In this document: piece after piece, positions 3,687 to 63,540 of the stretch
Layout: every line of letters starts with the position of its first letter
How positions within the stretch are numbered: position 1 is the stretch's first letter
DNA from: an uncultured Rikenellaceae bacterium
GTDB lineage: Bacteria > Bacteroidota > Bacteroidia > Bacteroidales > VadinHA17
Direction of reading: 5' to 3'
Length of the DNA stretch: 64,000 nt
Assembly (NCBI GenBank): GCA_964633505.1
Contig: CAZWHC010000002.1
Coordinates: forward strand, 55,002 to 119,001
Notes under the pieces: generated by a model
The model's input: only the letters and a program-made list of their open reading frames with translations
Databases searched by the model: none
What the model was told of the DNA's origin: nothing
Position numbers and translations under genes: made by a program

Positions 3687-3712
3687 TTGAATAATTTTAA
3701 TATGAAGTGGTG

Positions 3713-3720
3713 CAAAGTTA
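3713..3720 (-). promoter_or_regulatory. Bacteroidota -7 promoter element (TAACTTTG) upstream of the DsrE gene
   Basis: Matches the TAnnTTTG consensus about 27 bp upstream of the start. Confidence 0.55.
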
Positions 3721-3737
3721 GGAACAATTGGAATTAA

Positions 3738-4184
3738 TTATGGGGATAGATATTTGCGTTGTAAAATGTAATCTATAGACATTTTACCTGCCCCATAAAT
3801 AAGAAGAAAAATAATAAGCATTGTCATGGCAAAATCCGTTCTTGAATCATGAGCCATCTGCCAGAATCCCTTTTCTATCAATATCGGTATCTTGGTCGTT
3901 GTGATTGCAGTAATCATTATTGTGAGTAAAGGGATTGCAGCAACTCTGATTGAAAAACCAATCAGTATAAGTACACCACAAACAATTTCAAACGATGCCA
4001 CAAATGCCGCCAGAAATTCTGGATTTGCAAATCCTATCTTTTCGAAACGACCTGCACCGATAAATTCAGGAAAAAGGAATTTCTGGATTCCTTCCGAAAG
4101 AAAGACCAAACCCACAATCAATCTTGGCAAAATTGACCTGTAGTCATCAACTGTTTTAAAAACAATGCTTTGAATTTTCTTCAT
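3738..4184 (-). CDS. DoxX family membrane protein
   Basis: RLIVGLVFLSEGIQK, EIVCGVLILIG..R.AAIPL; 4 hydrophobic segments. Confidence 0.9.
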   Translation of the reverse strand: MKKIQSIVFKTVDDYRSILPRLIVGLVFLSEGIQKFLFPEFIGAGRFEKIGFANPEFLAAFVASFEIVCGVLILIGFSIRVAAIPLLTIMITAITTTKIPILIEKGFWQMAHDSRTDFAMTMLIIFLLIYGAGKMSIDYILQRKYLSP

Positions 4185-5042: not shown

Positions 5043-7115
5043 TTATCTTATAGTAATTGGGTAGGTCAGTTTTAAGAATCCAATATATTTGCTTTGAAAT
5101 ACCCCTTTAGAGTCTATGTATTCGGTATGATTAACAATGAAATACAAGTAACCAAATGGTGGCTTAAATCGCCATCCAGTCAAGCCATAGACATATATTT
5201 TGTCAGTAGAACTATTTGTCTGGCAGATTAATTTTATCCAAAGGTTATTTGTGAAGTTATAAGTAGTTGAAATACTGTTTATAAAAGCCGTTTTGAAGTC
5301 AATTGTCTCTGGATAAAAATGTATATACCTTGGCTTTAATTCAAGTGCCAGTTTGTTCAAAACCTTTAATTGCAGACCAGACTCAATAGAATAATAATCA
5401 GAACCAAAACTGCGACCTTTTCTTACCATTAGTGAAGCATGATTATAGGCTTCAATATTATAACCCAATGTAGCGGAATAATAGAAGTTATAGTAATCAG
5501 TATTCTCAGAGGTTATATACCTGTATTCATTATTATACCTGAGGTCAAGATTAAATTTATTTGTAAAATAGAATTGGACTGACTCATTAATGTTCCAACT
5601 CATAAATTTTGAAAAATCATCATTCCAGTAAATATTGTTTGCGGTGCTAAAGTTGATGTATTTAAAAACTGATTTTTTAATCCACCATTTATATGATAAA
5701 TCTGAATCAAATTCGTTTCGATTATCGTCATTTAGATATCCAGTCTCATTGAAAATATCTTTTAGTCCTTCTCCTTCAAGATAAGAATACCTGATATGCC
5801 AATGGAAAAAGTTGTTTTCTGCCGCAAACCTTACATATCCCGTATTGCGTAAAACATTCCAGTTGTCTACTGCAGCAACATACTGACCAGTAAATTTCCA
5901 GAGCGAACCGAGATTCAAAACATAATCAGGACTAAATGTTGAAATCATCCTGTTACCGATAAGTTTATTGGTTGTCGTGAAGCCAAGACTTGATGATTTC
6001 AAAATATCTCTCTTTACTCTGAATGCTGTATACATCGGCTTAGCACCAGATGAATCAATGGAATTTTTATCAAAGGCATTAATAAAATTGACGTTGGTTC
6101 TACCTGCTTTACCTGTCAATTTTATGCCTGCGGATATATCTCCTACACGTCTCGAATAGAAAGTTTTTAAACGTGTTTGATACATTTCGTTGCCTTCCTG
6201 AAAGAAAACCCTTTTTTCAGGATATTGTATCTCATATTTCGTAAGGTCAATGACATCTTCGTCAGCCTCAACTGTGGCGAAATCTGGATTTACAGTTATG
6301 TTTGAAGTTAAATTTGAATTTATTTGCCAGTTTATATCACCACCAATTTGATTTTCAAATATATATTTGTCCCAATTGGCATTTGTAGTTGTGACTTTCC
6401 CCATACCATATGGAATGAGTAATATGGTATTCTTTGTTGCCCCTGGACTTAAATTAAGAAGTTTTCCAGATGACGATATTTTATACTCTTCAGTAACACT
6501 TTTTGCCCAGTAGGAAATTTCAGATTTTTCCCGCACCATTCGTCTGAAGTTTATTTGCCAATCGGATTGATTTTTTTTGAATTTTATACTATTAAATGGA
6601 ATCACCATTTCGGCAAACCAACCCCAATCATATATTTGTGCACTGGAATTCCATTCAGTATCCCAATTATAATCAATTGTACGACCATCATCCATTATTC
6701 TGGAATCAGTTTGCGTCCCTAATGGATTAAGGGCAAAGCAATAGGCATTCCTGTTGTCATTAAAAGTCCCAAGAATAATAAATATACCATCATCACTTTG
6801 AGCAAATCTATCTCGAACCTGTATTTTACCTGTGACAGGTACATCCTGATAACAAGCGATACCGAAATAGATTGCTTTTTCATCCTGCATGACAATGATT
6901 CTGGTGTTTGATATAGTAGTGTCACCATTTAGTGGCTCAAGTTGAATAAAATTATAATTCATCAGGAGTGAATCAATATCATCAAATTTACCATCAATTG
7001 CGGGTAAAGTTTTTACTGGGAATACTTCTATATTTCGTTGCCCTGATACAGTGACAAAAAGAAAGAAAAGAAGAGAAGTATATATCGCTTTTTGTAAATT
7101 TTGTAGAATTGCCAT
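5043..7115 (-). CDS. DUF5916 / carbohydrate-binding family 9-like outer-membrane protein
   Basis: Signal peptide; W.AEMVIPFNSIKF, TVNPDFATVEAD, PEKRVFFQEG..F, YSRRVG motifs. Confidence 0.85.
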   Translation of the reverse strand: MAILQNLQKAIYTSLLFFLFVTVSGQRNIEVFPVKTLPAIDGKFDDIDSLLMNYNFIQLEPLNGDTTISNTRIIVMQDEKAIYFGIACYQDVPVTGKIQVRDRFAQSDDGIFIILGTFNDNRNAYCFALNPLGTQTDSRIMDDGRTIDYNWDTEWNSSAQIYDWGWFAEMVIPFNSIKFKKNQSDWQINFRRMVREKSEISYWAKSVTEEYKISSSGKLLNLSPGATKNTILLIPYGMGKVTTTNANWDKYIFENQIGGDINWQINSNLTSNITVNPDFATVEADEDVIDLTKYEIQYPEKRVFFQEGNEMYQTRLKTFYSRRVGDISAGIKLTGKAGRTNVNFINAFDKNSIDSSGAKPMYTAFRVKRDILKSSSLGFTTTNKLIGNRMISTFSPDYVLNLGSLWKFTGQYVAAVDNWNVLRNTGYVRFAAENNFFHWHIRYSYLEGEGLKDIFNETGYLNDDNRNEFDSDLSYKWWIKKSVFKYINFSTANNIYWNDDFSKFMSWNINESVQFYFTNKFNLDLRYNNEYRYITSENTDYYNFYYSATLGYNIEAYNHASLMVRKGRSFGSDYYSIESGLQLKVLNKLALELKPRYIHFYPETIDFKTAFINSISTTYNFTNNLWIKLICQTNSSTDKIYVYGLTGWRFKPPFGYLYFIVNHTEYIDSKGVFQSKYIGFLKLTYPITIR

Positions 7116-53450: not shown

Positions 53451-54416
53451 TTACTGAATATCCAGTGAAGCAATCGATTCCCTTAAGATCCCCGCCGAAC
53501 GTTGTAACAGCTCTTTTTCATTTTCCGAGAGTGGACCATCGACTATTCTAACAATTCCCGTATCAGACACTACAGCCGGAAGGCTTAAACATACATTGCT
53601 GATCCCATATTCGCCCCGGAGCATTGTTGATACCGTAAGCACAGAATTCTGTCGTCGCAACACCGATGCAGTTATCTTTACAAGGGCAAGTCCGACAGCA
53701 AAATGTGTCGATCCCTTTGCATTAATAATATGATAGGCTGATTCACGGACCTTCTGTTCGATAGTAAGCCTCTCTTCCTTCCATCCTGCACATCCGCCGC
53801 AAAGAGGACAATATCTGTCAATCGGTATACCGCCTATATGTGTCATCGACCATGCCGCCACTTCACTGTCGCCATGTTCCCCGAGTATATATGCATGTAC
53901 ATTATGAACATCCACGTCGCAATGTCTGGCAATGAAATGCCTGAATCTGGCGCTGTCGAGAACTGTCCCCGAACCAATCACCCGGGCCGGATCCCATCCC
54001 GACCGTTTTATTGCAACCCAGGTAAGTACATCGACAGGATTGGTGACAATCAGCATTACTCCCTTTGATTTGTTCATTGCGACTTCTTCCGCGATGCTTC
54101 CGACTATGGAGGCGTTCTTCTTAAGGAGATCGAGCCTTGTCTCGCCGGGTTTCTGGGCCGACCCTGCAGTTATTACAACCAGGTTTGCATCACTGTAGTC
54201 GGTTGCAGATCCCTGACGAATGATGGCAGTTGGAAAAAATGGCTGCCCGTGTACAAGATCGGAGACCTGTCCTTCGGCAAGATCCGTATTCCTGTCAATA
54301 ATAACTATTTCGTCGGCCAGCCCGCTCTGAGCCAATGAGTAACAATATGTTGCCCCAACGGAGCCTGCTCCCACAACAACTACCTTTCTCCAATTCGTAT
54401 TATTTCCAGATTTCAT
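53451..54416 (-). CDS. ldh: L-lactate dehydrogenase
   Basis: VVGAGSVG, TAGSAQKPGETRLDL, TNPVD, GTVLDSARF, GEHGDS. Confidence 0.95.
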   Translation of the reverse strand: MKSGNNTNWRKVVVVGAGSVGATYCYSLAQSGLADEIVIIDRNTDLAEGQVSDLVHGQPFFPTAIIRQGSATDYSDANLVVITAGSAQKPGETRLDLLKKNASIVGSIAEEVAMNKSKGVMLIVTNPVDVLTWVAIKRSGWDPARVIGSGTVLDSARFRHFIARHCDVDVHNVHAYILGEHGDSEVAAWSMTHIGGIPIDRYCPLCGGCAGWKEERLTIEQKVRESAYHIINAKGSTHFAVGLALVKITASVLRRQNSVLTVSTMLRGEYGISNVCLSLPAVVSDTGIVRIVDGPLSENEKELLQRSAGILRESIASLDIQ

Positions 54417-54613
54417 TTCAATTATTTCGGGGTTCTGTTAATTAATTAACAATCGCCGTCAGGCGTTGTTCATTTTCTTACATCCTGAATTTAATTCCAA
54501 CATGAATCTGGAAAATCTGTTTCATTTATAATTTCACTTTCTGATTAAGTCAAAAATTCAGAATATCTTAGATTGGAAATAGGTTATTTTTTTGCCCCAT
54601 AACACAGTTTGAA

Positions 54614-56470
54614 ATGAAAAAAGATACAATCCTTCCCTTCCTCAAAGATATTGAGCTATTCAAAAATCTGGATGACAAGGAGTTTAAGGAACTGGCCCGG
54701 AGTATTAGGGAAAAACATTGTGAACCCGGGGAAATGCTTTTCAGCGAAAATAATCCGAGGGAAGATATTTTTATAATCCTCGATGGTAAGGTTGAATTAT
54801 ACAAGACCGATTCGTACGGTACAAAGATCAGGCTTGCACTCTTCGGGAAAGGTGATTTCCTTGGCGAGGGCATCCTTGATCCCGATTCGCTGCACTCGAC
54901 CTCTGCCAGGGCAGTGTCAAAGGCAATCCTTCTCGATGTAAGGAAAGATTTTCTCAATTATAATGCAGGAACGACACTGAAAGTCCTGTCAAACATAATT
55001 GGAATAGTTTCGAGGAGGATGCGCAATGCAAACAGCAGGATTATGAATACTGCGGCACAATATGTTTCGGGAAGGACACGTGTTGAAAGCGACCTTCTTG
55101 GACAGCGCGAAGTCCCATGGGAATCTTACTATGGTATACAGACTCTAAGGGCGGTTGAAAATTTCAATATAACAGGTATTACCCTGAATTTTTTCCCGAC
55201 CCTTATTGAAGCCCTGGCTACAGTTAAGGAAGCGGCTGCAGAAGCTAATTTCAGACTTGGTCTTCTTGATGAGTCAATAAAAGATGCAATTGTCCAGGCA
55301 TGCCAGGAGATCCGCTATGGGAAATTTCATAATCACTTTACAGTCGATATGATACAGGGAGGGGCCGGAACATCGACAAACATGAATGCCAATGAGGTGA
55401 TAGCGAACCGTGCCCTGAGGATACTTGGACACGACAGGGGAGAATACAAATACTGCCATCCCAACAACCACGTTAATCTGTCGCAATCGACAAATGATGC
55501 ATATCCGACTGCCGTTAAAATTGCATTGTTCAATTCAAACAGGAACCTTGTTGCGGTGCTTACAAAGCTTGTCGATTCATTTAAAAAGAAAGGGGAGGAG
55601 TTTGCTCATATAATCAAAATGGGAAGGACCCAGCTTCAGGATGCTGTGCCGATGACACTGGGCCAGGAATTTGAAGCATATTCAGTTACACTGTCCGAAG
55701 AAATCGAAAGGCTTAACCAGAATGCAATGCTGTTCCTCGAGATCAACATGGGAGCTACAGCAATAGGAACCGGCATAAATACAGTCCCGGGATATGCAGA
55801 GCTTGTTGTCAGATACCTGCGAAAGATTTCAGGCCTTAAGCTGTCCCTTTCATCCAACCTTGTTGAGGCTACACAGGATACCGGCGCTTTTGTAATGTAT
55901 TCATCTGCAGTTAAAAGGCTTGCAGTAAAGCTCTCAAAAATATGCAATGATCTCCGGCTTCTTTCGTCGGGACCAAGAGCAGGAATAAACGAGATAAACC
56001 TTCCTCCCATGCAGCCTGGTTCATCAATAATGCCGGGCAAAGTCAACCCTGTAATTCCTGAGGTCGTAAACCAGATAGCCTTCAAGGTTATTGGGAATGA
56101 CCTTTCCGTTACCATGGCTTCGGAAGCAGGGCAGCTCGAACTTAATGTTTTTGAACCTGTAATAGTCCATTCCATCTTCGAATCGGTCGAAATGCTTATA
56201 AACGGCATGAATACTCTGAGGTACCGATGTATCGAAGGGATTACTGCGAATGAGGAAAGATGCCGTGATCTGGTTCAGAACAGCATCGGGATTATCACAG
56301 CCCTTGTCCCATGGATTGGATATCAGGATCTTAATGACATTGCAAAGGATGCCCTTGAAAATAAAGAGAGCGTTTACTCTCTTGTACTCAAGAGAGGTCT
56401 TCTTTCGAAGGAAAAACTCGATCAGATCCTGGCACCGGAAAATATGATCAGGCCAGTGAAAATAAAATGA
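54614..56470 (+). CDS. aspA: aspartate ammonia-lyase with N-terminal cyclic-nucleotide-binding domain
   Basis: N-terminal ~150-aa cNMP domain (LFSEN, FIILDGKVEL, GDFLGE); aspartase motifs RVESDLLG, QGGAGTSTNMNANEV, GSSIMPGKVNPVIPE. Confidence 0.93.
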   Translation: MKKDTILPFLKDIELFKNLDDKEFKELARSIREKHCEPGEMLFSENNPREDIFIILDGKVELYKTDSYGTKIRLALFGKGDFLGEGILDPDSLHSTSARAVSKAILLDVRKDFLNYNAGTTLKVLSNIIGIVSRRMRNANSRIMNTAAQYVSGRTRVESDLLGQREVPWESYYGIQTLRAVENFNITGITLNFFPTLIEALATVKEAAAEANFRLGLLDESIKDAIVQACQEIRYGKFHNHFTVDMIQGGAGTSTNMNANEVIANRALRILGHDRGEYKYCHPNNHVNLSQSTNDAYPTAVKIALFNSNRNLVAVLTKLVDSFKKKGEEFAHIIKMGRTQLQDAVPMTLGQEFEAYSVTLSEEIERLNQNAMLFLEINMGATAIGTGINTVPGYAELVVRYLRKISGLKLSLSSNLVEATQDTGAFVMYSSAVKRLAVKLSKICNDLRLLSSGPRAGINEINLPPMQPGSSIMPGKVNPVIPEVVNQIAFKVIGNDLSVTMASEAGQLELNVFEPVIVHSIFESVEMLINGMNTLRYRCIEGITANEERCRDLVQNSIGIITALVPWIGYQDLNDIAKDALENKESVYSLVLKRGLLSKEKLDQILAPENMIRPVKIK

Positions 56471-56491
56471 GACTGATTGTCTGAATGGCAT

Positions 56492-58234
56492 TTACCTGTT
56501 GTAAAAATGCCCCTCTGCTTTTTGTCTTTTGGCGCTGCGTCTTTTTTCGGGATGTTTTGAAGACCTTTTTCCACGGAATTCACCTGCTCTGTCGTTTTTC
56601 GCTGATTTTTCCTGTGCCTTCTGAAGTACAAGCCTGCTATCCATATATTGCTTATTATGGAGCGTCTTTATAAGCATATCCGCATGGTCGGATCCGACTT
56701 CAAAAAAAGAGAAGTCCTTCATAAGGTCTATCTTTCCGATAGGTATCTGGGCGCCTCTTGTATTCTGGTTAATAAGATCTATTAACTGTTCGGGGTAGAA
56801 ACCGTCTGATTTCCCGCGATTTATAAATAACCTTGTATAATCACCTTCAAAACGGTCACGCGATCTTTTCCCGTTTTTACCTTCAGATCTCCCGGCTTTT
56901 TCGGGAACCGGTACGATAAGGTCCTCTCCATGACGGTAATCGTCGAGGAACCTTTCAAATTCGAGTGTGACAATTCTTCTTAGAAGCTCTTCCCTGTCGA
57001 GGTTTCCAAGTTTCTCCTTGATCTCAGGGATATATTTTTCTATCTCCTTATGGCCTGTTGTGACATTTTCAATCTTGCCGACCCAGTTGAAAAGTTGTTT
57101 CCCGCATATCTCCGTTCCTGTGGGGATCGGCAGTGATTTGAATGACTTTTTAATAAGACGTTCAATCTTGTTGAGGTTATTCTTTTCCTTGAGATGGACA
57201 AGGGCTATTGATATCCCTGTTTTTCCTGCCCGTCCTGTACGGCCCGACCTGTGGGTATAAACCTCGGGGTCGTCGGGAAGGCTGTAGTTTATCACATGTG
57301 TCAGATCGTCGACATCCAGGCCGCGGGCAGCCACATCGGTCGCTACAAGTATCTGGAGGTTCTTCTGACGGAATTTCTGCATCACGTTATCGCGCTGAGC
57401 CTGCGACAGATCGCCATGAAGAGCGTCGGCATCATACCCGTCGTTTATAAGGTTTGATGCTACTTCCTGTGTTTCTTTACGTGTACGGCAGAATACTATG
57501 CCATAAATGTCGGGTTCGAAATCAGCAATACGTTTCAGAACTTTGTATTTGTCCCTGGCATGTACAAGGTAATAATTGTGGCTTACATTTTCAGCCGAAG
57601 AGTTTTTAGTCCCGATAGTTATCTCTGACGGGCTGTTCATATATTTTCTTGCTATCGACCCTATTTCAGGCGACATTGTTGCTGAAAAGAGAAGCGTTCT
57701 TCTTCCTTCCGGAACTTCTTCGAGGATCTCATTTATGCTGTCGAGAAATCCCATATTGAGCATTTCATCAGCTTCATCAAGTACGACTGTATGTACATTG
57801 TTCAGCCTGGCAGCCCTTCTGCCTATCAGGTCGATAAGCCGGCCCGGGGTTGCAACTATTATATGTACGCCCTTCTTCAGTTCCCTGATCTGATTTTCGA
57901 TGCTCGAACCGCCATATACTGCAAGTATCCTCAGGTTGCCTGTATGCTTTGAGTAATCGGCAAGATCGCCTGTGATCTGAATGCAGAGTTCCCTCGTGGG
58001 ACAAAGTATGAGTGCCTGTGTGGAATTAATTTCAGGATTTGTCGACAGAACAAGCGGAAGACCGAAAGCTGCAGTCTTTCCTGTACCTGTTTGTGCAAGT
58101 GCAATAATATCGTTTTCTGTGCCAAGCATCAGGGGGATAACCTTCTCCTGTACGGGCATAGGATGTTCAAAACCAAGTTCCTTAATTGCTTTAAGGATGC
58201 CGGGAGTAAATCCCATTTCTTCAAATTGTATCAT
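56492..58234 (-). CDS. deaD: DEAD-box RNA helicase with DbpA-type RNA-binding C-terminus
   Basis: AQTGTGKT, PTREL, LDEADEM, SAT, HRSGRTGRAG; C-terminal RLFINRG...GKIDL...FSFFEV. Confidence 0.93.
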   Translation of the reverse strand: MIQFEEMGFTPGILKAIKELGFEHPMPVQEKVIPLMLGTENDIIALAQTGTGKTAAFGLPLVLSTNPEINSTQALILCPTRELCIQITGDLADYSKHTGNLRILAVYGGSSIENQIRELKKGVHIIVATPGRLIDLIGRRAARLNNVHTVVLDEADEMLNMGFLDSINEILEEVPEGRRTLLFSATMSPEIGSIARKYMNSPSEITIGTKNSSAENVSHNYYLVHARDKYKVLKRIADFEPDIYGIVFCRTRKETQEVASNLINDGYDADALHGDLSQAQRDNVMQKFRQKNLQILVATDVAARGLDVDDLTHVINYSLPDDPEVYTHRSGRTGRAGKTGISIALVHLKEKNNLNKIERLIKKSFKSLPIPTGTEICGKQLFNWVGKIENVTTGHKEIEKYIPEIKEKLGNLDREELLRRIVTLEFERFLDDYRHGEDLIVPVPEKAGRSEGKNGKRSRDRFEGDYTRLFINRGKSDGFYPEQLIDLINQNTRGAQIPIGKIDLMKDFSFFEVGSDHADMLIKTLHNKQYMDSRLVLQKAQEKSAKNDRAGEFRGKRSSKHPEKRRSAKRQKAEGHFYNR

Positions 58235-58358
58235 TTATTCTTTTTATGGTGCATATCCGGGAGCGATTTATTTAATATCCCGGCTGAAATGAACTCAAAT
58301 GCAGACTGGATTAAATGCGTGACTACGCTACTTGGAAATCACCTTGTTAATAAGGGCG

Positions 58359-58366
58359 CAAAGGTA
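58359..58366 (-). promoter_or_regulatory. Bacteroidota -7 promoter element (TACCTTTG) with ~120-nt leader before the DEAD-box helicase
   Basis: Reverse complement of CAAAGGTA. Confidence 0.55.
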
Positions 58367-58509
58367 ATAAAATAATCATGATAAAATAATCACCCACAAA
58401 ATATTAATTGGTTTCCCTTATTCCCCGGATGTTTTTTCTTAAAATCAGTTTTAAACATTATCTTTTAACCGTTGTTTAATGATATGTTATCAAATTTAAA
58501 CCCTCAAAT

Positions 58510-59437
58510 CATGCAGACAATACTGGGCGCCAGCGGAACAATTGGTAAACTGCTAGCAAGGGAACTTACGTCGTACACTGACAGGATAAGACTTGTATGC
58601 CGCAATCCCGTAAAAGTAAATGAAACTGATGATCTTTTTCCTGCCGATCTTTTTGAACCAGGCTCAGTTGACAGGGCTGTTGAAGGTTCTGATGTCGTTT
58701 ACCTTGTCGTAGGTCTTCAATATAAATTAAAAGTATGGGAAGAAGAATGGCCTGAACTGATGAGAGAAACAATTGAAGCATGTCTTAAGTACAATTCAAG
58801 GCTTGTCTTCTTCGATAATGTCTATATGTATGATAAGGATTTCATCTCTGATATGACCGAAGATACTCCTGTCAATCCGTCGAGCCGTAAGGGAGCAGTA
58901 AGAAAACATATAAATGAAATGCTTTTCAATGCCATTAATGAAAAAAATCTGAAAGCACTTATTGCCCGTTCTGCAGATTTTTACGGACCTGACAACAAAA
59001 ATAACTTCATAACACAAATGGTACTGAATAATTTAAACAAGGGCAAAAAAGCTATGTGGTTTGTCAGTGGAGATTTAAAGCATTCATTCACATATACCCC
59101 CGATGCTGCCAGGGCAACAGCATTACTCGGGAATACAACTGATGCATACGGACAGATCTGGCATTTGCCTACCGACAGCAGAAAGATCACAGGAAAAGAG
59201 ATAATCACAATGATAGCAAATGAGTTCGGAGCTGAACCCGGGATCACCATTCTCCCAAAATGGATGCTTCTGCTGCTGGGTATCTTTATACCTGTAATGC
59301 GTGAAATGCCTGAGATGATGTATCAGTACGACCGCGATTACTATTTTAACTCATCAAAATTCACTTCCCGTTTCGGCATTTCGGCCACTCCCTACGAAAC
59401 AGGGATTAAGGAAACATGCAAGTTATTCACTAAATAG
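58510..59437 (+). CDS. NAD-dependent epimerase/dehydratase family protein
   Basis: ILGASGTIG, DNVYMY, SRKG..R, ARSADFYGP; likely ATG at 58510. Confidence 0.9.
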
Positions 59438-59573
59438 TTGTAATTGATTACCAGTTTTTTGCAAAGCTTCTCTGTTAATTATTCTGTAGTAGACTTTCTT
59501 AAGTTGACTGCAATAAATACGTCGAATATTTTCAAATGTTCAAATACCTGGTTGAAGAATACCCTAAAATACT

Positions 59574-59615
59574 CCCGGGTGCGGTGATCTTATTGGAAGC
59601 GTAGCTGGTACTATT
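59574..59615 (+). repeat. 42-bp dispersed repeat, copy 1
   Basis: CCCGGGTGCGGTGATCTTATTGGAAGCGTAGCTGGTACTATT; 35/42 identical to 61620-61661. Confidence 0.75.
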
Positions 59616-59866
59616 GTAAATGAGATTCTACGTTTGAGCAGGCAGAACCGCCAGAGAACTCCAGACCCTCAACTTTCATTAATGACTTAATAAGCTTCAT
59701 TATCACAATAGTAATTTTTTATTTAACATCAGGTTATTATACACAGACCCAGTTATTTTTTTTAAGATATTTTATAATTTTATGTGTGAATCGATGATAA
59801 TCATACAATCGCTGAGGGATTCTTCGAAAACTCAACTTATTTATCCTATTAAAATTCAATTAGCAT

Positions 59867-61387
59867 ATGAATATAACAAGAATTATTTCCACAAAAACAG
59901 AACTTAGAAATGAAATCATATTATTACTTGAAAAAAGTTTTAACCTGGCGCACCACATTGCTGAAAGAAATTATGATGATTCATTATCGAGAAATTTTGA
60001 TCAACTAATTGATAGTATTTGGATTCTGATAGAGACACCATATATTGACAAGGTGTACAGAGACACTTACTATAATTACTTCTCTACTAAACTTGCCCGG
60101 TATGAAAGGGATTGCATAAGGCTTTCATTCTTTGACGGAGAAATCAGGAATGTGGATTTTCAGGATGAAACAAAGCTTGAGACTCTTCGAAAAAGATACC
60201 TGGGCTTTATGGTGCTTAGGCCAACAGATCCTCAGGTCCTCGGGCGAAGTGTAATTTCGAAAAATGCGTTGAAGGACAACAATTTTATTTGCACTAGCGC
60301 CGAAATTCCTGCTACTGTTAATTCTGTTAAATTTAAAATAAAGGGATTTCCCCACTCATCTCAGGATACTGAAATAACATCATGTGCTGAAACAACTCTC
60401 TGGGCTATCATGGAATACTTTGGTAATAAATACCCCGAGTACAAACCTGTATTACCATCTCAAATAATAAATGTTTTGAAACAGGTATCTACTGAAAGAC
60501 AGGTACCTTCGAATGGTTTGAATATTCAGCAGATAGCCTTTGCACTGAAAGAATTTGGATTCGGGACAAAAGTCTATTCAAAAGAAGTTTATGGGGGAAC
60601 ACTCTTTAAAAGGCTTTTTTCTACTTATATAGAGAGTGGAATACCAATAATCTCAGCTGTCGAGAACAGGCCCGTTGGAAATATCGGGCATGTTTTAATT
60701 TCAATAGGTCATGAAATTATTAAAGATAATCAGATTGACAATTTAATGCCCTCAGCTGAAATAGAACCAGGCATCCAAAACTTGTTAACAGCAAAAAATA
60801 TTATACTTTTTGATAACGATGATATTGATAAATCATTTGTATTGATCGATGATAACTGCCCTGCTTATCAGCTTGCCCATTTGAATAGCCCCACAATCCA
60901 TTATCCTGATCCTGCATGGCATAACTGTAAGATAACCTATTTTATAGTTCCATTATATCCTAAGATATACCTTGAAGCATTTAAAGCGAAAAACTTCTTC
61001 CTGGGAATTCTGTTTAATTGGTTCACGAATATCCCAAATTATTCGAATATTTTCATCAGGTTCTTTTTATGCTCAAGCAGGTCATTTAAGCACGAGCTTT
61101 CATTAAAAAGAGATTTTAATCAGGTTATTAAAGATCTTATACTTGAAACACAGATGCCAAAGTTCATCTGGATAGGTGAAATATCAACAAAAGAACTAAT
61201 AAAGAAAAAGCTTGCAAACGGATTGGTTATTATTGATGCAACTCAGACAAATGACCAATCTGTTAAAGTTGTGATATCTGCCGCTTATGAAGGAGTTTAT
61301 ATCTTTTATGATGTTGTAAGTAAGTGGATTAAAAAAAGTTTGTTACCTTTGGGGTCATTTTCTATATTTACAAACAACCTTAAATGA
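59867..61387 (+). CDS. uncharacterised papain/C39-peptidase-like protein
   Basis: 506 aa; SQD...SCAE..LW (oxyanion Gln and Cys), GHV...GH, IDDN; N-terminal E.PYID..Y..YY and YLGFMVLRP blocks. Confidence 0.65.
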   Translation: MNITRIISTKTELRNEIILLLEKSFNLAHHIAERNYDDSLSRNFDQLIDSIWILIETPYIDKVYRDTYYNYFSTKLARYERDCIRLSFFDGEIRNVDFQDETKLETLRKRYLGFMVLRPTDPQVLGRSVISKNALKDNNFICTSAEIPATVNSVKFKIKGFPHSSQDTEITSCAETTLWAIMEYFGNKYPEYKPVLPSQIINVLKQVSTERQVPSNGLNIQQIAFALKEFGFGTKVYSKEVYGGTLFKRLFSTYIESGIPIISAVENRPVGNIGHVLISIGHEIIKDNQIDNLMPSAEIEPGIQNLLTAKNIILFDNDDIDKSFVLIDDNCPAYQLAHLNSPTIHYPDPAWHNCKITYFIVPLYPKIYLEAFKAKNFFLGILFNWFTNIPNYSNIFIRFFLCSSRSFKHELSLKRDFNQVIKDLILETQMPKFIWIGEISTKELIKKKLANGLVIIDATQTNDQSVKVVISAAYEGVYIFYDVVSKWIKKSLLPLGSFSIFTNNLK

Positions 61388-61394
61388 CACCGGA

Positions 61395-61592
61395 ATGTCG
61401 GAAATCATTAACAAAACCGCGGAGATACTTGCTTTACTTGAAAATGAGGCTAAGGTAAGATCTATGGACTCTAAGGAGGAAGTGGATGCTATTCTGGCAG
61501 TCGATAAAATTATGGAGGAAGTGGGAAGGGATTATCAGATAAAAGATAATAAGTCACAGATTGCCTCTGCCAGCGTGGTGTTATGTGCATAA
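61395..61592 (+). CDS. small 65-aa helical protein
   Basis: ATG 7 bp after the previous stop; ends ASASVVLCA. Confidence 0.7.
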   Translation: MSEIINKTAEILALLENEAKVRSMDSKEEVDAILAVDKIMEEVGRDYQIKDNKSQIASASVVLCA

Positions 61593-61619
61593 ACGCCATT
61601 ACCTAATAACAAAAACCCA

Positions 61620-61661
61620 CCCGGGTGCGCTGATCTTGCGGGAAGCGTGGCAGGTATTATT
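61620..61661 (+). repeat. 42-bp dispersed repeat, copy 2
   Basis: CCCGGGTGCGCTGATCTTGCGGGAAGCGTGGCAGGTATTATT. Confidence 0.75.
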
Positions 61662-61788
61662 AAGTGTAAATTTATGATATATTTTTGAAATATAAACAAC
61701 TTATTAGCAATTATTTGCTGAGGACTCCTGTTTTTGAACTATCTAAGATTATAAGAAGCAATATGTGCCATTCGGAAATGATTCTGAA

Positions 61789-63540
61789 TCATATCAGAAG
61801 ATTTTTATCTGTCTTTAATATTATTTCAAAGTTGCCAACACAAATATGATGAAGCCCATAAAGGAACTTTTTGCCTGCTATTTTTAATCCATCAACGAAT
61901 GTCCCTAAATTGGATAGGTTATATAGCCATACATCGTTTTTTGAGTTTACTAAAAGAAAATGGAGTCTGCTTATTGATGTGTCATTAAGATCGGGGACAG
62001 GATTTTTAAGATATCCGTATCGGCCGATTGTTATTATTTCATTATTGCTGTAATATTTACGATCTGAACCGGGAATGATTATTTCAATGGTATTCTCAAT
62101 CGAACCTATTTTTTCAAACCGGTGCTCACGAAAAATAAGTTTGGACGCCAGCGCCGGTCCTTTTTTATTATCCCAGCATTTTAAATCCTTTTTTTTGAGA
62201 GAAAGATAAAAGTTAATGAAAGGATCATTAGTGCCATTTATCGGATCCTCCGGATCATTTGGATTATCATCTTTTGAAAGGGCAGAAAGCAGGTAGTTGG
62301 TGTAAAAACATTTTATGCCGGGAAATGTCTTTTTAAGTTCCTTAAGGTAAAGGAAAGACTGCTCAAATAATCCAAGTTCATAAAAGCATCTGGCAAGAAG
62401 ATTATGCGCTTCCGTATCGTTTGGATTTCTTTGAAGATAATCATTCAGCAAAGAAATGGCTTCGCGATGTTTTCCTGATTCAAGCTGCATCCAGCCAAAT
62501 TCTTTATGAACCTCGGCTCTTGGATTAAATTTCAGCAACCTGCCGAAATATTTATTTGCTTCAGCAATATTATTCTGTAATAAATAGTACCGGCCCAGGG
62601 AACGCAGTGCGCCCAGGTCGTTTTCGTGCATTGTCAGGGCAGCATTCAGTGCATTATATGCATTCCGCCACTTATGACTTTTTAAATAACGTTCGGCTTT
62701 GACAACAAGATTACCTGCCCGGATAAGTTTTGTATCAAGTATTGCAGGTACATATTGAGAACGTATCGCTTCAGCCATTTCACGTGCTGTCTGAAAGCGA
62801 AGAGCAGGGTCCGGTTCGACGGCCCGGTAGATAATATTCTGAAGCCAGACCGGCAGATTCCCGGGTAAAAGTTGTTTTTCTCTTATTAATTCTGACCACT
62901 CCGGCAATGGTTTCCCTTTATAAGGATTTAAGCCTGAAAGTGTTTCAATTAATGTTATTCCCAGGGCATATATATCAGTCCGCGGATCCTGTAAATCCGG
63001 TTCCGTTGCCCTGAAAAGTTCGGGTGCCATATAAGGTCCGGTTCCGGAAAGCCTGTTTGCCACACCAAAATCGGATATCTTTATTTCGTCAGTGACTGTA
63101 AAAAGTATATTGTCGGGTTTAATATCGTGATGCACGATATTCTTAAGGTGCACATTGTGAATTGTTTCACAAAGGATCTCAAACCATGGAAGGGCAATTG
63201 ACGGCAAAACTGGCTTTGAAAGTCTTTCTCTCAGACTCCCGTTTTCGCAGTATTCCATAACAAGACAGATATTCTTCTGCCGCATGAAGTGATGGTAAAA
63301 GGCTGTAATATTTGTAAATCCGAGATTGGCTACTGTCTTTATTTCATGTATAATGTTCTTCTGTTTTTCGCAATCCGTTTCCTTAAGCCATTTTATTGCA
63401 ACAAGCCGGTCAGCCAGTACATCTTTTGCCAGGGCAACCCTGCCAAATCCGCCTCCGCCGAGATATTTTATATACAGGTAGTTATCGTTAAAATACATTC
63501 GTAATTCATTTGATTGCCAGACCGGTATTGGTAATAACAA
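61789..63540 (-). CDS. Hanks-type Ser/Thr protein kinase - TPR - FHA protein
   Basis: GGGGFGRV, VAIK, HHDIKPDN, DFG, GTGPYMAPE, DIYALG; helical TPR-like middle; FHA motifs ITIGR, SISRLH, NLGTFVDG; alternative ATG at 63498. Confidence 0.92.
   Translation of the reverse strand: MLLPIPVWQSNELRMYFNDNYLYIKYLGGGGFGRVALAKDVLADRLVAIKWLKETDCEKQKNIIHEIKTVANLGFTNITAFYHHFMRQKNICLVMEYCENGSLRERLSKPVLPSIALPWFEILCETIHNVHLKNIVHHDIKPDNILFTVTDEIKISDFGVANRLSGTGPYMAPELFRATEPDLQDPRTDIYALGITLIETLSGLNPYKGKPLPEWSELIREKQLLPGNLPVWLQNIIYRAVEPDPALRFQTAREMAEAIRSQYVPAILDTKLIRAGNLVVKAERYLKSHKWRNAYNALNAALTMHENDLGALRSLGRYYLLQNNIAEANKYFGRLLKFNPRAEVHKEFGWMQLESGKHREAISLLNDYLQRNPNDTEAHNLLARCFYELGLFEQSFLYLKELKKTFPGIKCFYTNYLLSALSKDDNPNDPEDPINGTNDPFINFYLSLKKKDLKCWDNKKGPALASKLIFREHRFEKIGSIENTIEIIIPGSDRKYYSNNEIITIGRYGYLKNPVPDLNDTSISRLHFLLVNSKNDVWLYNLSNLGTFVDGLKIAGKKFLYGLHHICVGNFEIILKTDKNLLI

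Follow-up and report, generated by a model that had tools for sequence, protein, structure and literature searches.

Which role can a papain-like enzyme have when its gene is always followed by that of a tiny protein and stands in DNA rich in genes of conflict? The question is raised by a two-gene locus in a stretch of 64,000 nucleotides from an uncultured Rikenellaceae bacterium (GenBank assembly GCA_964633505.1, contig CAZWHC010000002.1, positions 55,002 to 119,001 of the forward strand), a stretch that we call the window. The large gene encodes a protein with a protease core between two other domains, and the small gene encodes what we call the partner, a protein that is conserved mainly in its C-terminal tail (Table 1). 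A preliminary description, made from the letters of the window, had taken the pair as its best candidate for an undescribed system, made of a protease and a partner, and no known family has since claimed it: neither protein matches Pfam, NCBIfam, PADLOC, PHROG or PDB sequences at permissive thresholds, and searches of the literature turned up no description of the pair. We see in the pair a good candidate for a new combination of a protease and its own small regulator in the setting of genetic conflict, built on a new and very large family of clan CA with two novel domains.

A papain-fold enzyme with two additional domains

Both open reading frames (ORFs) are as first described, with a gap of 7 nt between them (TGA-CACCGGA-ATG). 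The proposed triad, a Q-x6-C motif with a GH and a DD further downstream, corresponds to Q166...C173, G274-H275 and D328-D329-N330. Among 30 genomic homologues, with identities down to 28%, Q166, D167, C173, A174, W179, H275, G281 and D328-D329-N330 are all invariant. In 66 representatives of the family (down to 33% identity) the same is true for C173, H275 and D329, and D328, N330 and Q166 are each conserved in at least 90%. Since C173, H275 and D329 are invariant across such diverged homologues, the catalytic motifs are not there by chance.

The AlphaFold2 model of the large protein, which was built on an alignment of the representatives, has a mean predicted local distance difference test (pLDDT) of 95.7 and a predicted template modelling score of 0.93. 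C173 opens the helix 173-188 in the model, just as the nucleophilic Cys of clan CA is the residue with which a helix begins. The strand 274-283 has H275 at its start, and D328-N330 come directly after the strand 323-327; a His on a strand, an Asp or Asn after the next strand and an upstream Gln for the oxyanion hole are likewise what clan CA enzymes have. As modelled, the placement of C173, H275 and D328-N330 is the canonical papain arrangement. The N- and C-terminal extensions that had been seen form domains of their own. Because residues 4-25 are confidently modelled as a strand and a helix inside the N-terminal domain, the protein most likely has no signal peptide and is cytoplasmic, as had been supposed.

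When the full-length model was searched against the PDB with Foldseek, staphopains B, A and C came out on top (1x9y, 1pxv, 1cv8, 1y4h and 8oig; E 5e-5 to 5e-4, probability 1.0) at a sequence identity of 9-13%, and two of these entries, 1pxv and 1y4h, are complexes of a staphopain with its staphostatin. The Ufm1-specific protease UfSP and Alr0975 were matched with a probability of 0.99-1.0. The template modelling scores, normalised to the target, are 0.47-0.59 for staphopains A, B and C, UfSP and Alr0975, which amounts to a similar fold. Further matches were a chlamydial deubiquitinase, IdeS/Mac-1, AvrPphB, interpain and the toxin Cpe1. The N- and C-terminal domains had no significant neighbour in this search, and a structure search of BFVD gave nothing significant.

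Peptidase_C39_2 (PF13529) matches weakly in 22 of the 66 family members, with 1.7e-4 as the best value, and does not match the large protein of the window at E<=1; a distant relative on a Pseudomonas aeruginosa plasmid just passes the gathering score (24.7 against 24 bits). With the window protein unmatched and its relatives mostly below the threshold, the family is a neighbour of PF13529 and not a member of it. The conserved residues and the model together support the large protein as a papain/C39-like cysteine peptidase of clan CA with extra N- and C-terminal domains, its activity being predicted.

A partner that is always there

That a small tailed protein should always be encoded beside homologues of the enzyme was an expectation of the preliminary description, and it holds. 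In all 37 genome loci that have downstream sequence and in 71 of 71 metagenome loci the large gene has an ORF of 56-78 amino acids behind it on its own strand, the distance between the two genes ranging from -29 to +97 nt, and most of the small proteins keep the tail motif. This supports the small protein as a genuine and obligately linked partner. Natural fusions of the two proteins were not found among 150 representatives or 80 metagenome loci. Two metatranscriptome contigs are identical to the locus (100%), one over 61360-61520, which crosses the gene junction, and one over 61392-61632; two contigs are thin evidence, consistent with expression and co-transcription of the pair.

The partner of the window had been described as charged and helical. 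Charged residues make up 32% of it, and a low-confidence AlphaFold2 model from the single sequence (pLDDT 67) gives the two helices of Table 1 and leaves the last ~22 residues unstructured. A profile of the small protein run against PDB sequences gave coiled-coil noise only. The body of the partner drifts within the family, with isoelectric points from 4.5 to 10.4, and the register of the tail is fixed to the C-terminus. Counted from that end in 37 partners, position -12 is S in 30, -8 is A in 26, -3 is L in 30 and -2 is T or N in 29, with hydrophobic residues at -5 and -4; in 90 non-identical pairs the L is kept in 82 and the T or N in 79. The last residue is A in 16 of the 37, S in 5, D, M and G in 3 each and something else in the others, which makes it the most variable of the final five, and conservation is concentrated at -5 to -2 and -12 to -7. 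Such a pattern would suit a partner that the protease takes as its substrate no less than one that is an unstable inhibitor.

Table 1. Position and extent of the two genes, their domains and motifs, the flanking repeats and the disrupted homologues. Coordinates are those of the window, except for the loci L013 to L035, which have their own.
Feature	Position	Strand	Remarks
Large gene, whole ORF	59867-61387	+	506 amino acids (aa)
N-terminal alpha/beta domain, aa 1-160	59867-60346	+	Invariant in alignments: E56, Y59, R65, G113, R118, G126
Predicted papain-fold core (clan CA, Peptidase_C39_2-like), aa ~161-365	60347-60961	+	From invariant residues, AlphaFold2, Foldseek and weak Peptidase_C39_2 matches
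Catalytic codons, Q166	60362-60364	+	
Catalytic codons, C173	60383-60385	+	
Catalytic codons, H275	60689-60691	+	
Catalytic codons, D328-D329-N330	60848-60856	+	
C-terminal alpha/beta domain, aa 366-506	60962-61387	+	Stop codon included; invariant F433, E438, D457-A458-T459
Small partner gene	61395-61592	+	65 aa; predicted helices aa 3-22 and 27-43, then a flexible tail
Conserved tail S54-QIASASVVLCA65	61554-61589	+	Family motif S-Q-x-x-A-[AS]-x-h-h-L-[T/N]-x-COOH
50-nt direct repeat, upstream copy	59566-59615	none	80% identical to 61612-61661
50-nt direct repeat, downstream copy	61612-61661	none	Begins 20 nt past the stop of the small gene
Putative 5' untranslated/promoter region of the cassette	59616-59866	+	251 nt, AT-rich, non-coding, from the repeat to the ATG
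Disrupted large gene, L013	7545-9053		In-frame stops
Disrupted large gene, L024	10001-11455		In-frame stops
Disrupted large gene, L030	10001-11483		Frameshift
Disrupted large gene, L034	2212-3470		Deletion
Disrupted large gene, L035	371-1476		Deletion; the His/Asp region is lost

Distribution and mobility

A scan of genome contigs gave 38 homologous loci with identities of 27-60%, mostly from Bacteroidota and some from Chlorobiota and Desulfobacterota. An exhaustive HMMER search over 1.84 billion representatives gave 3,181 clusters (50% identity) with E<=1e-3, of which 506 have E<=1e-30, and every database name of a family member is "hypothetical protein".

The two genes form a cassette of their own, which behaves as a horizontally mobile unit. 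When the neighbours of 40 loci were clustered only the pair was conserved, and no other family occurred in more than five loci. The preliminary description had placed the pair next to a methyltransferase-kinase operon; the two are indeed adjacent in this genome, but the linkage is not kept across the 40 loci, and it must be local since no other neighbour is conserved. The claim of direct repeats around the pair was right: the window has two copies that bracket it and no third in the 64 kb, with 0.08 expected by chance. Flanking direct repeats of 33-267 nt were found at 10 of the 67 loci with 700 nt on both sides, against 2 of 109 control windows of the same geometry, shifted elsewhere in the same loci (Fisher p=0.0013). 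They differ in sequence from locus to locus, and those of two loci belong to locally dispersed repeat families. The claim that the DNA is AT-rich stands in part. The pair has a GC content of 0.35, below that of its neighbours (0.434 in the housekeeping block 53451-59437; 0.395 in the whole window), yet its AT content is matched elsewhere in the window.

Some observations on single loci may be added. In L057 the end of the gene upstream (36 nt) and 140 nt of intergenic sequence (together 3695-3871) are repeated after the small gene (5757-5932), and direct repeats of 108-267 nt, made of local sequence and 81-98% identical, flank the pair in L057, L069, L096, L103, L107 and L084. Repeats of the L057 type suggest an insertion with duplication of the target, which could have come about by, for instance, single-crossover integration of a circular intermediate. 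A Desulfobacterales metagenome-assembled genome (L037, 8921-12319) has a genome-specific short repeat, TTAGCCGCAGATGGACGCAGATG..., in several intergenic regions around the cassette, and a Bacteroidales one (L013, 4545-13136) has another, GACCTTGGCAAGGGTTGTGGAC..., in the same kind of position; L013 also has a palindromic element of ~125 nt on either side of the pair. The repeat of the window has no Rfam match and no significant fold (z -1.35 to 0.52). We considered an integron cassette with attC sites and rejected it, there being no fold, no Rfam match, only locus-specific sequences and, in L057, a repeat that is duplicated local sequence. A tRNA or tmRNA integration site was not found in the window. 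Sigma-70-type promoters were sought in the 5' region as well, where 15 sites against 11.8 expected make the scan uninformative.

Contigs from human gut metagenomes (L104-L106) carry the pair too, with a tail that ends in ...KKLVLTD, and the family is therefore not confined to environmental Bacteroidota. More distant relatives, at 20-25% identity, are found on plasmids of Hymenobacter, P. aeruginosa and Shewanella (L041 4578-6437, L042 4604-7007 and L043 4618-7004). This branch keeps the motifs of the N-terminal domain and the protease core with its DD pair, and has a different, longer region in place of the C-terminal domain. An unrelated ORF of 52-57 amino acids lies upstream, not downstream, of its large gene, and among its neighbours are multiubiquitin, ThiF and DUF6527 proteins (ubiquitin-like/E1), a caspase-family protein and a TrlF ATPase.

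Defence genes in the neighbourhood

The preliminary description saw in the pair a two-component conflict system, and both the clustering of neighbours and counts of defence genes support a self-contained module of two components in variable DNA that is rich in such genes. In the loci other than that of the window we took the two nearest genes on each side as adjacent; the distal control consisted of genes from these loci at a distance of more than 6 kb. The 110 adjacent genes match 144 PADLOC families at E<=1e-10 and the 96 distal genes match 29, and these 29 stem from about five proteins. Strong matches among the adjacent genes include type I and IIG restriction enzymes, DrmD, DrmMI, LmuA, AbiLi, E1-like proteins and a 4TM effector of the type found in cyclic-oligonucleotide-based anti-phage signalling systems (CBASS). 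The pair is thus associated with defence islands, and the association is partial.

In the genome of the window the pair stands between housekeeping genes and a conflict-type block with a Ser/Thr kinase-TPR-FHA protein, a type IIG-like restriction enzyme/methyltransferase of 1392 amino acids, a PDC-S02/DUF1016 nuclease of the PD-(D/E)xK type and an SNF2/DrmD-like helicase. The kinase gene (61789-63540, minus strand) has MAD6/PD-T4-6-like matches on its kinase domain only. The block runs past the end of the window (L039, 13677-21521), the kinase gene being downstream of the genes for the restriction enzyme/methyltransferase, the nuclease and the helicase, and these four look like a separate, composite defence locus. 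A related strain in metagenome run X3 has kept the pair and the kinase, with 81 differences over 60833-63518, and its contig turns into unrelated sequence exactly at the 5' end of the kinase gene (~63518), which makes the methyltransferase block strain-variable.

Two other neighbourhoods deserve mention. On an IMG/VR contig (L044, 9758-15715) the pair lies beside a Piwi-domain protein of 684 amino acids (a prokaryotic Argonaute), a DUF4391 protein and an SNF2 helicase of 1075 amino acids, with a phage terminase large subunit 2 kb upstream, and the region has the look of a hotspot of defence genes in an element that resembles a prophage. Among the other genes of the window, 54614-56470 (plus strand) encodes a protein of 618 amino acids with an N-terminal cyclic-nucleotide-binding domain fused to a class II fumarase/aspartase (Lyase_1 and FumaraseC_C in Pfam), which is an unusual regulatory fusion for an enzyme of central metabolism.

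What the pair may do

Our preferred explanation, which we hold tentatively and regard as quite possible rather than probable, is that the pair is a module like those of toxin-antitoxin (TA) systems or abortive infection, in which the partner is a pseudo-substrate brake on the peptidase. The first gene would provide a cytoplasmic peptidase of three domains, with Q166 for the oxyanion hole, C173 as the nucleophile, H275 as the base and D328/D329 as the third member. The second gene, co-transcribed with it, would provide a protein of two helices whose flexible tail is read by the substrate cleft of the peptidase. Bound through this tail the enzyme would be silent, the partner acting like an antitoxin or immunity protein. 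If the partner were lost, displaced or out-titrated, by phage infection or by loss of the cassette, the peptidase would be set free and could cleave cellular or phage proteins, with growth arrest or abortive infection as the outcome. The interaction, the inhibition, the trigger and the phenotype are what we infer here, and the precedents are staphopain with staphostatin and Cpe1 with Cpi1 (PMC12136450).

Several results weigh against the brake. The partner has no helix-turn-helix (HTH), ribbon-helix-helix (RHH) or AbrB family that scans with domain libraries could detect, and in lacking a detectable DNA-binding domain it is unlike typical type II antitoxins. A plug that needs its carboxylate explains the variable last residue less naturally than the leaving group of a substrate does. 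When we looked for covariation of the T/N of the tail with columns of the enzyme, the top columns were scattered and dominated by phylogeny, and none was near the catalytic motifs. Five loci have a disrupted large gene, and the small ORF is intact in all of them; the idea that a toxin decays while its antitoxin stays was rejected, as five disruptions against none are what gene length predicts (P about 0.55), and since gene length alone suffices the disrupted genes are no evidence for toxicity. Neither protein was matched by PADLOC-DB v2.0.0 at E<=1. When large neighbours were scanned one by one, only 3 of 10 were recognisable defence genes, and many of the loci can for that reason not be recognised at once as defence islands. 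A search of 50,697 phage genomes gave no relative, and one of IMG/VR gave only 4. Metagenome contigs gave no joint that skips the cassette, and hence no excision or empty site, absence being something that contigs cannot prove.

The explanation that survives best after the brake, although we consider it unlikely, is that the partner is a true substrate. The enzyme would read the positions P4-P1 (h-h-L-T/N) and remove the variable last residue, either to mature the partner or to transfer it by way of a thioester, which would amount to a system for protein tagging or transpeptidation that is independent of ATP. A motif that is anchored one residue from the C-terminus, with the last residue as the most variable, is the pattern of a leaving group. 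Two of the Foldseek matches work in a comparable way: Alr0975 is a papain-fold transpeptidase whose crystals contained the acyl-enzyme that is left once glutathione has lost its C-terminal Gly, and UfSP trims the C-terminus of its modifier. Papain-fold enzymes usually prefer a hydrophobic residue at S2, and the Leu of the tail, which stands two residues ahead of the putative scissile bond, agrees with this preference. What speaks against a substrate is that no E1, E2, ligase or acceptor gene is conserved nearby, that the partner is predicted to be helical and not a beta-grasp protein, with Gly ends as rare as counted above, and that a few partners have no extra residue (e.g. ...VILR and ...YFIG). 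The special case in which a thioester with the remaining 64 residues is transferred to a phage or host target, the last peptide bond serving as the source of energy, seems improbable to us; it would make the pair a hitherto unrecognised sort of module for protein modification or immunity, following the logic of sortase, butelase and phytochelatin synthase on a dedicated cytoplasmic protein tag.

Doubtful, too, is a selfish addiction (TA) module that stabilises the mobile DNA carrying it and has no part in fighting phages. The cassette is compact, autonomous and bracketed by direct repeats, it is spread patchily across phyla, it has distant relatives on plasmids, and some copies lie on contigs that are predicted to come from prophages or viruses, all of which would suit such a module. 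Against it stand the defence genes concentrated right beside the pair and the absence of a replicon or integrase that is consistently linked; the remaining evidence is the same as for the peptidase held in check by its partner, and a role in addiction and one in defence are not mutually exclusive.

We think it just as doubtful that the enzyme is an accessory metabolic or housekeeping one, such as an amidase, an acyltransferase or a transglutaminase-like enzyme, with the partner as a structural subunit or chaperone and without any genetic conflict. The papain superfamily includes many enzymes that are not proteases (PMC10318531). All three domains are under strong purifying selection in the 3,181-cluster family, and of the 10 large neighbours in the sample 7 are something other than defence genes. 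The contexts are variable, however, with no conserved neighbour of a pathway, and the low GC against the flanks, the flanking repeats and the local excess of defence genes are features of an accessory mobile conflict module.

The preliminary description had read the tail as a Clp/Tsp degron. The antitoxins of type II TA systems are as a rule labile, and the recognition of ssrA-type tags is dominated by the last residues and the carboxylate. That the partner is short-lived because a housekeeping protease such as ClpXP, Lon or Tsp recognises its tail seems very unlikely, for although the hydrophobic or small tail ends (...VILTA, ...LVLNA) loosely resemble ...ALAA and an unstable partner would suit a TA module, the terminal residue varies while -5 to -2 and -12 to -7 are conserved, the 12 conserved residues are longer than a simple degron, and Tsp is periplasmic when both proteins are without export signals.

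Whichever explanation is right, the family is large. It spans Bacteroidota, Chlorobiota, Desulfobacterota, plasmid relatives in Pseudomonadota and the human gut, and it has no name, no family model and no solved relative at the level of sequence. It combines a protease core and two domains without significant structural neighbours with a tiny protein that is always there and that is conserved mainly in a tail one residue from its C-terminus. If the pair is a defence or addiction module, it would add a class of protease-based effectors to the Bacteroidota, a group with an immune repertoire that has been little explored. Should the tail prove to be a true substrate, a new chemistry of protein tagging without ATP could come to light, and if the thioester transfer were true, a dedicated protein tag would be carried on a mobile cassette in defence islands of thousands of bacterial lineages.

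Comparison with known systems

The staphopain-staphostatin pairs (sspB-sspC and scpA-scpB; MEROPS C47) likewise consist of the gene of a papain-fold protease followed by that of a small cognate protein. Staphostatin binds in the active-site cleft in the direction of a substrate, and staphopains are the best structural match of our enzyme. The two differ all the same. Staphopains are made as zymogens for secretion, having a signal peptide and a prodomain, whereas the enzyme of the window is most likely cytoplasmic and has two unrelated extra domains, and staphostatins are beta-barrels of ~105-110 amino acids, whereas the partner is smaller, predicted to be helical and equipped with its tail motif. 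At the level of hidden Markov models the enzyme does not belong to the staphopains, and the pair is not a staphopain-staphostatin system.

Cpe1 is reported to be a papain-like toxin that is active inside bacteria, cleaves GyrB/ParE and is neutralised by the small Cpi1 encoded next to it (PMC12136450). Its structure (PDB 9l5u) is a weak match to the enzyme of the window, at rank 24 with a probability of 0.87. Cpe1 is the delivered toxin domain of polymorphic toxins of type VI secretion (T6SS) and contact-dependent inhibition (CDI) systems, whereas our protein lacks a delivery domain and has no genes for secretion in its vicinity. Cpi1 is described as blocking a substrate-binding surface rather than using a C-terminal tail (PMC12136450).

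Peptidases of the Peptidase_C39_2/C39 group are the closest family in sequence and have the same Q...C...H...D arrangement. C39 bacteriocin systems have an ABC (ATP-binding cassette) exporter and a double-glycine leader, whereas our pair has neither an ABC fusion nor an exporter in its conserved context, and no GG motif. An ssrA-like degron is recognised mainly by its last 2-3 residues (LAA-COOH), and the tail of the partner ends in h-h-L-[T/N]-x, with less conservation at the last position than at the four before it.

The modifier systems of Ufm1/UfSP, Bil and Bub have a beta-grasp protein that ends in Gly(-Gly), with E1 and E2 enzymes, and the pair is not of this kind; E1-like neighbours were seen in only 2 loci. 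The phytochelatin-synthase-like Alr0975 and UfSP act 1-2 residues from the C-terminus of the substrate by way of an acyl-enzyme, and this resembles the geometry that the tail of the partner suggests. The two enzymes act on glutathione and on a beta-grasp modifier with Gly at its end, whereas the partner is a small, apparently helical protein ending in L-[T/N]-x, and there is no kinship at the level of sequence.

Type II TA systems have an antitoxin that binds DNA and regulates its own gene through an HTH or RHH domain, which the pair lacks, and the "toxin" of the window, with its 506 amino acids, is far above the size of classical TA toxins. The adjacent and co-transcribed genes of these systems, inherited as a unit, are found here as well. 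With type II TA systems and with defence systems that contain a protease, such as CBASS under the regulation of CapP/CapH, the pair has in common that it is a compact, co-transcribed and mobile module of two genes among defence genes, in which a protease is combined with a small protein.

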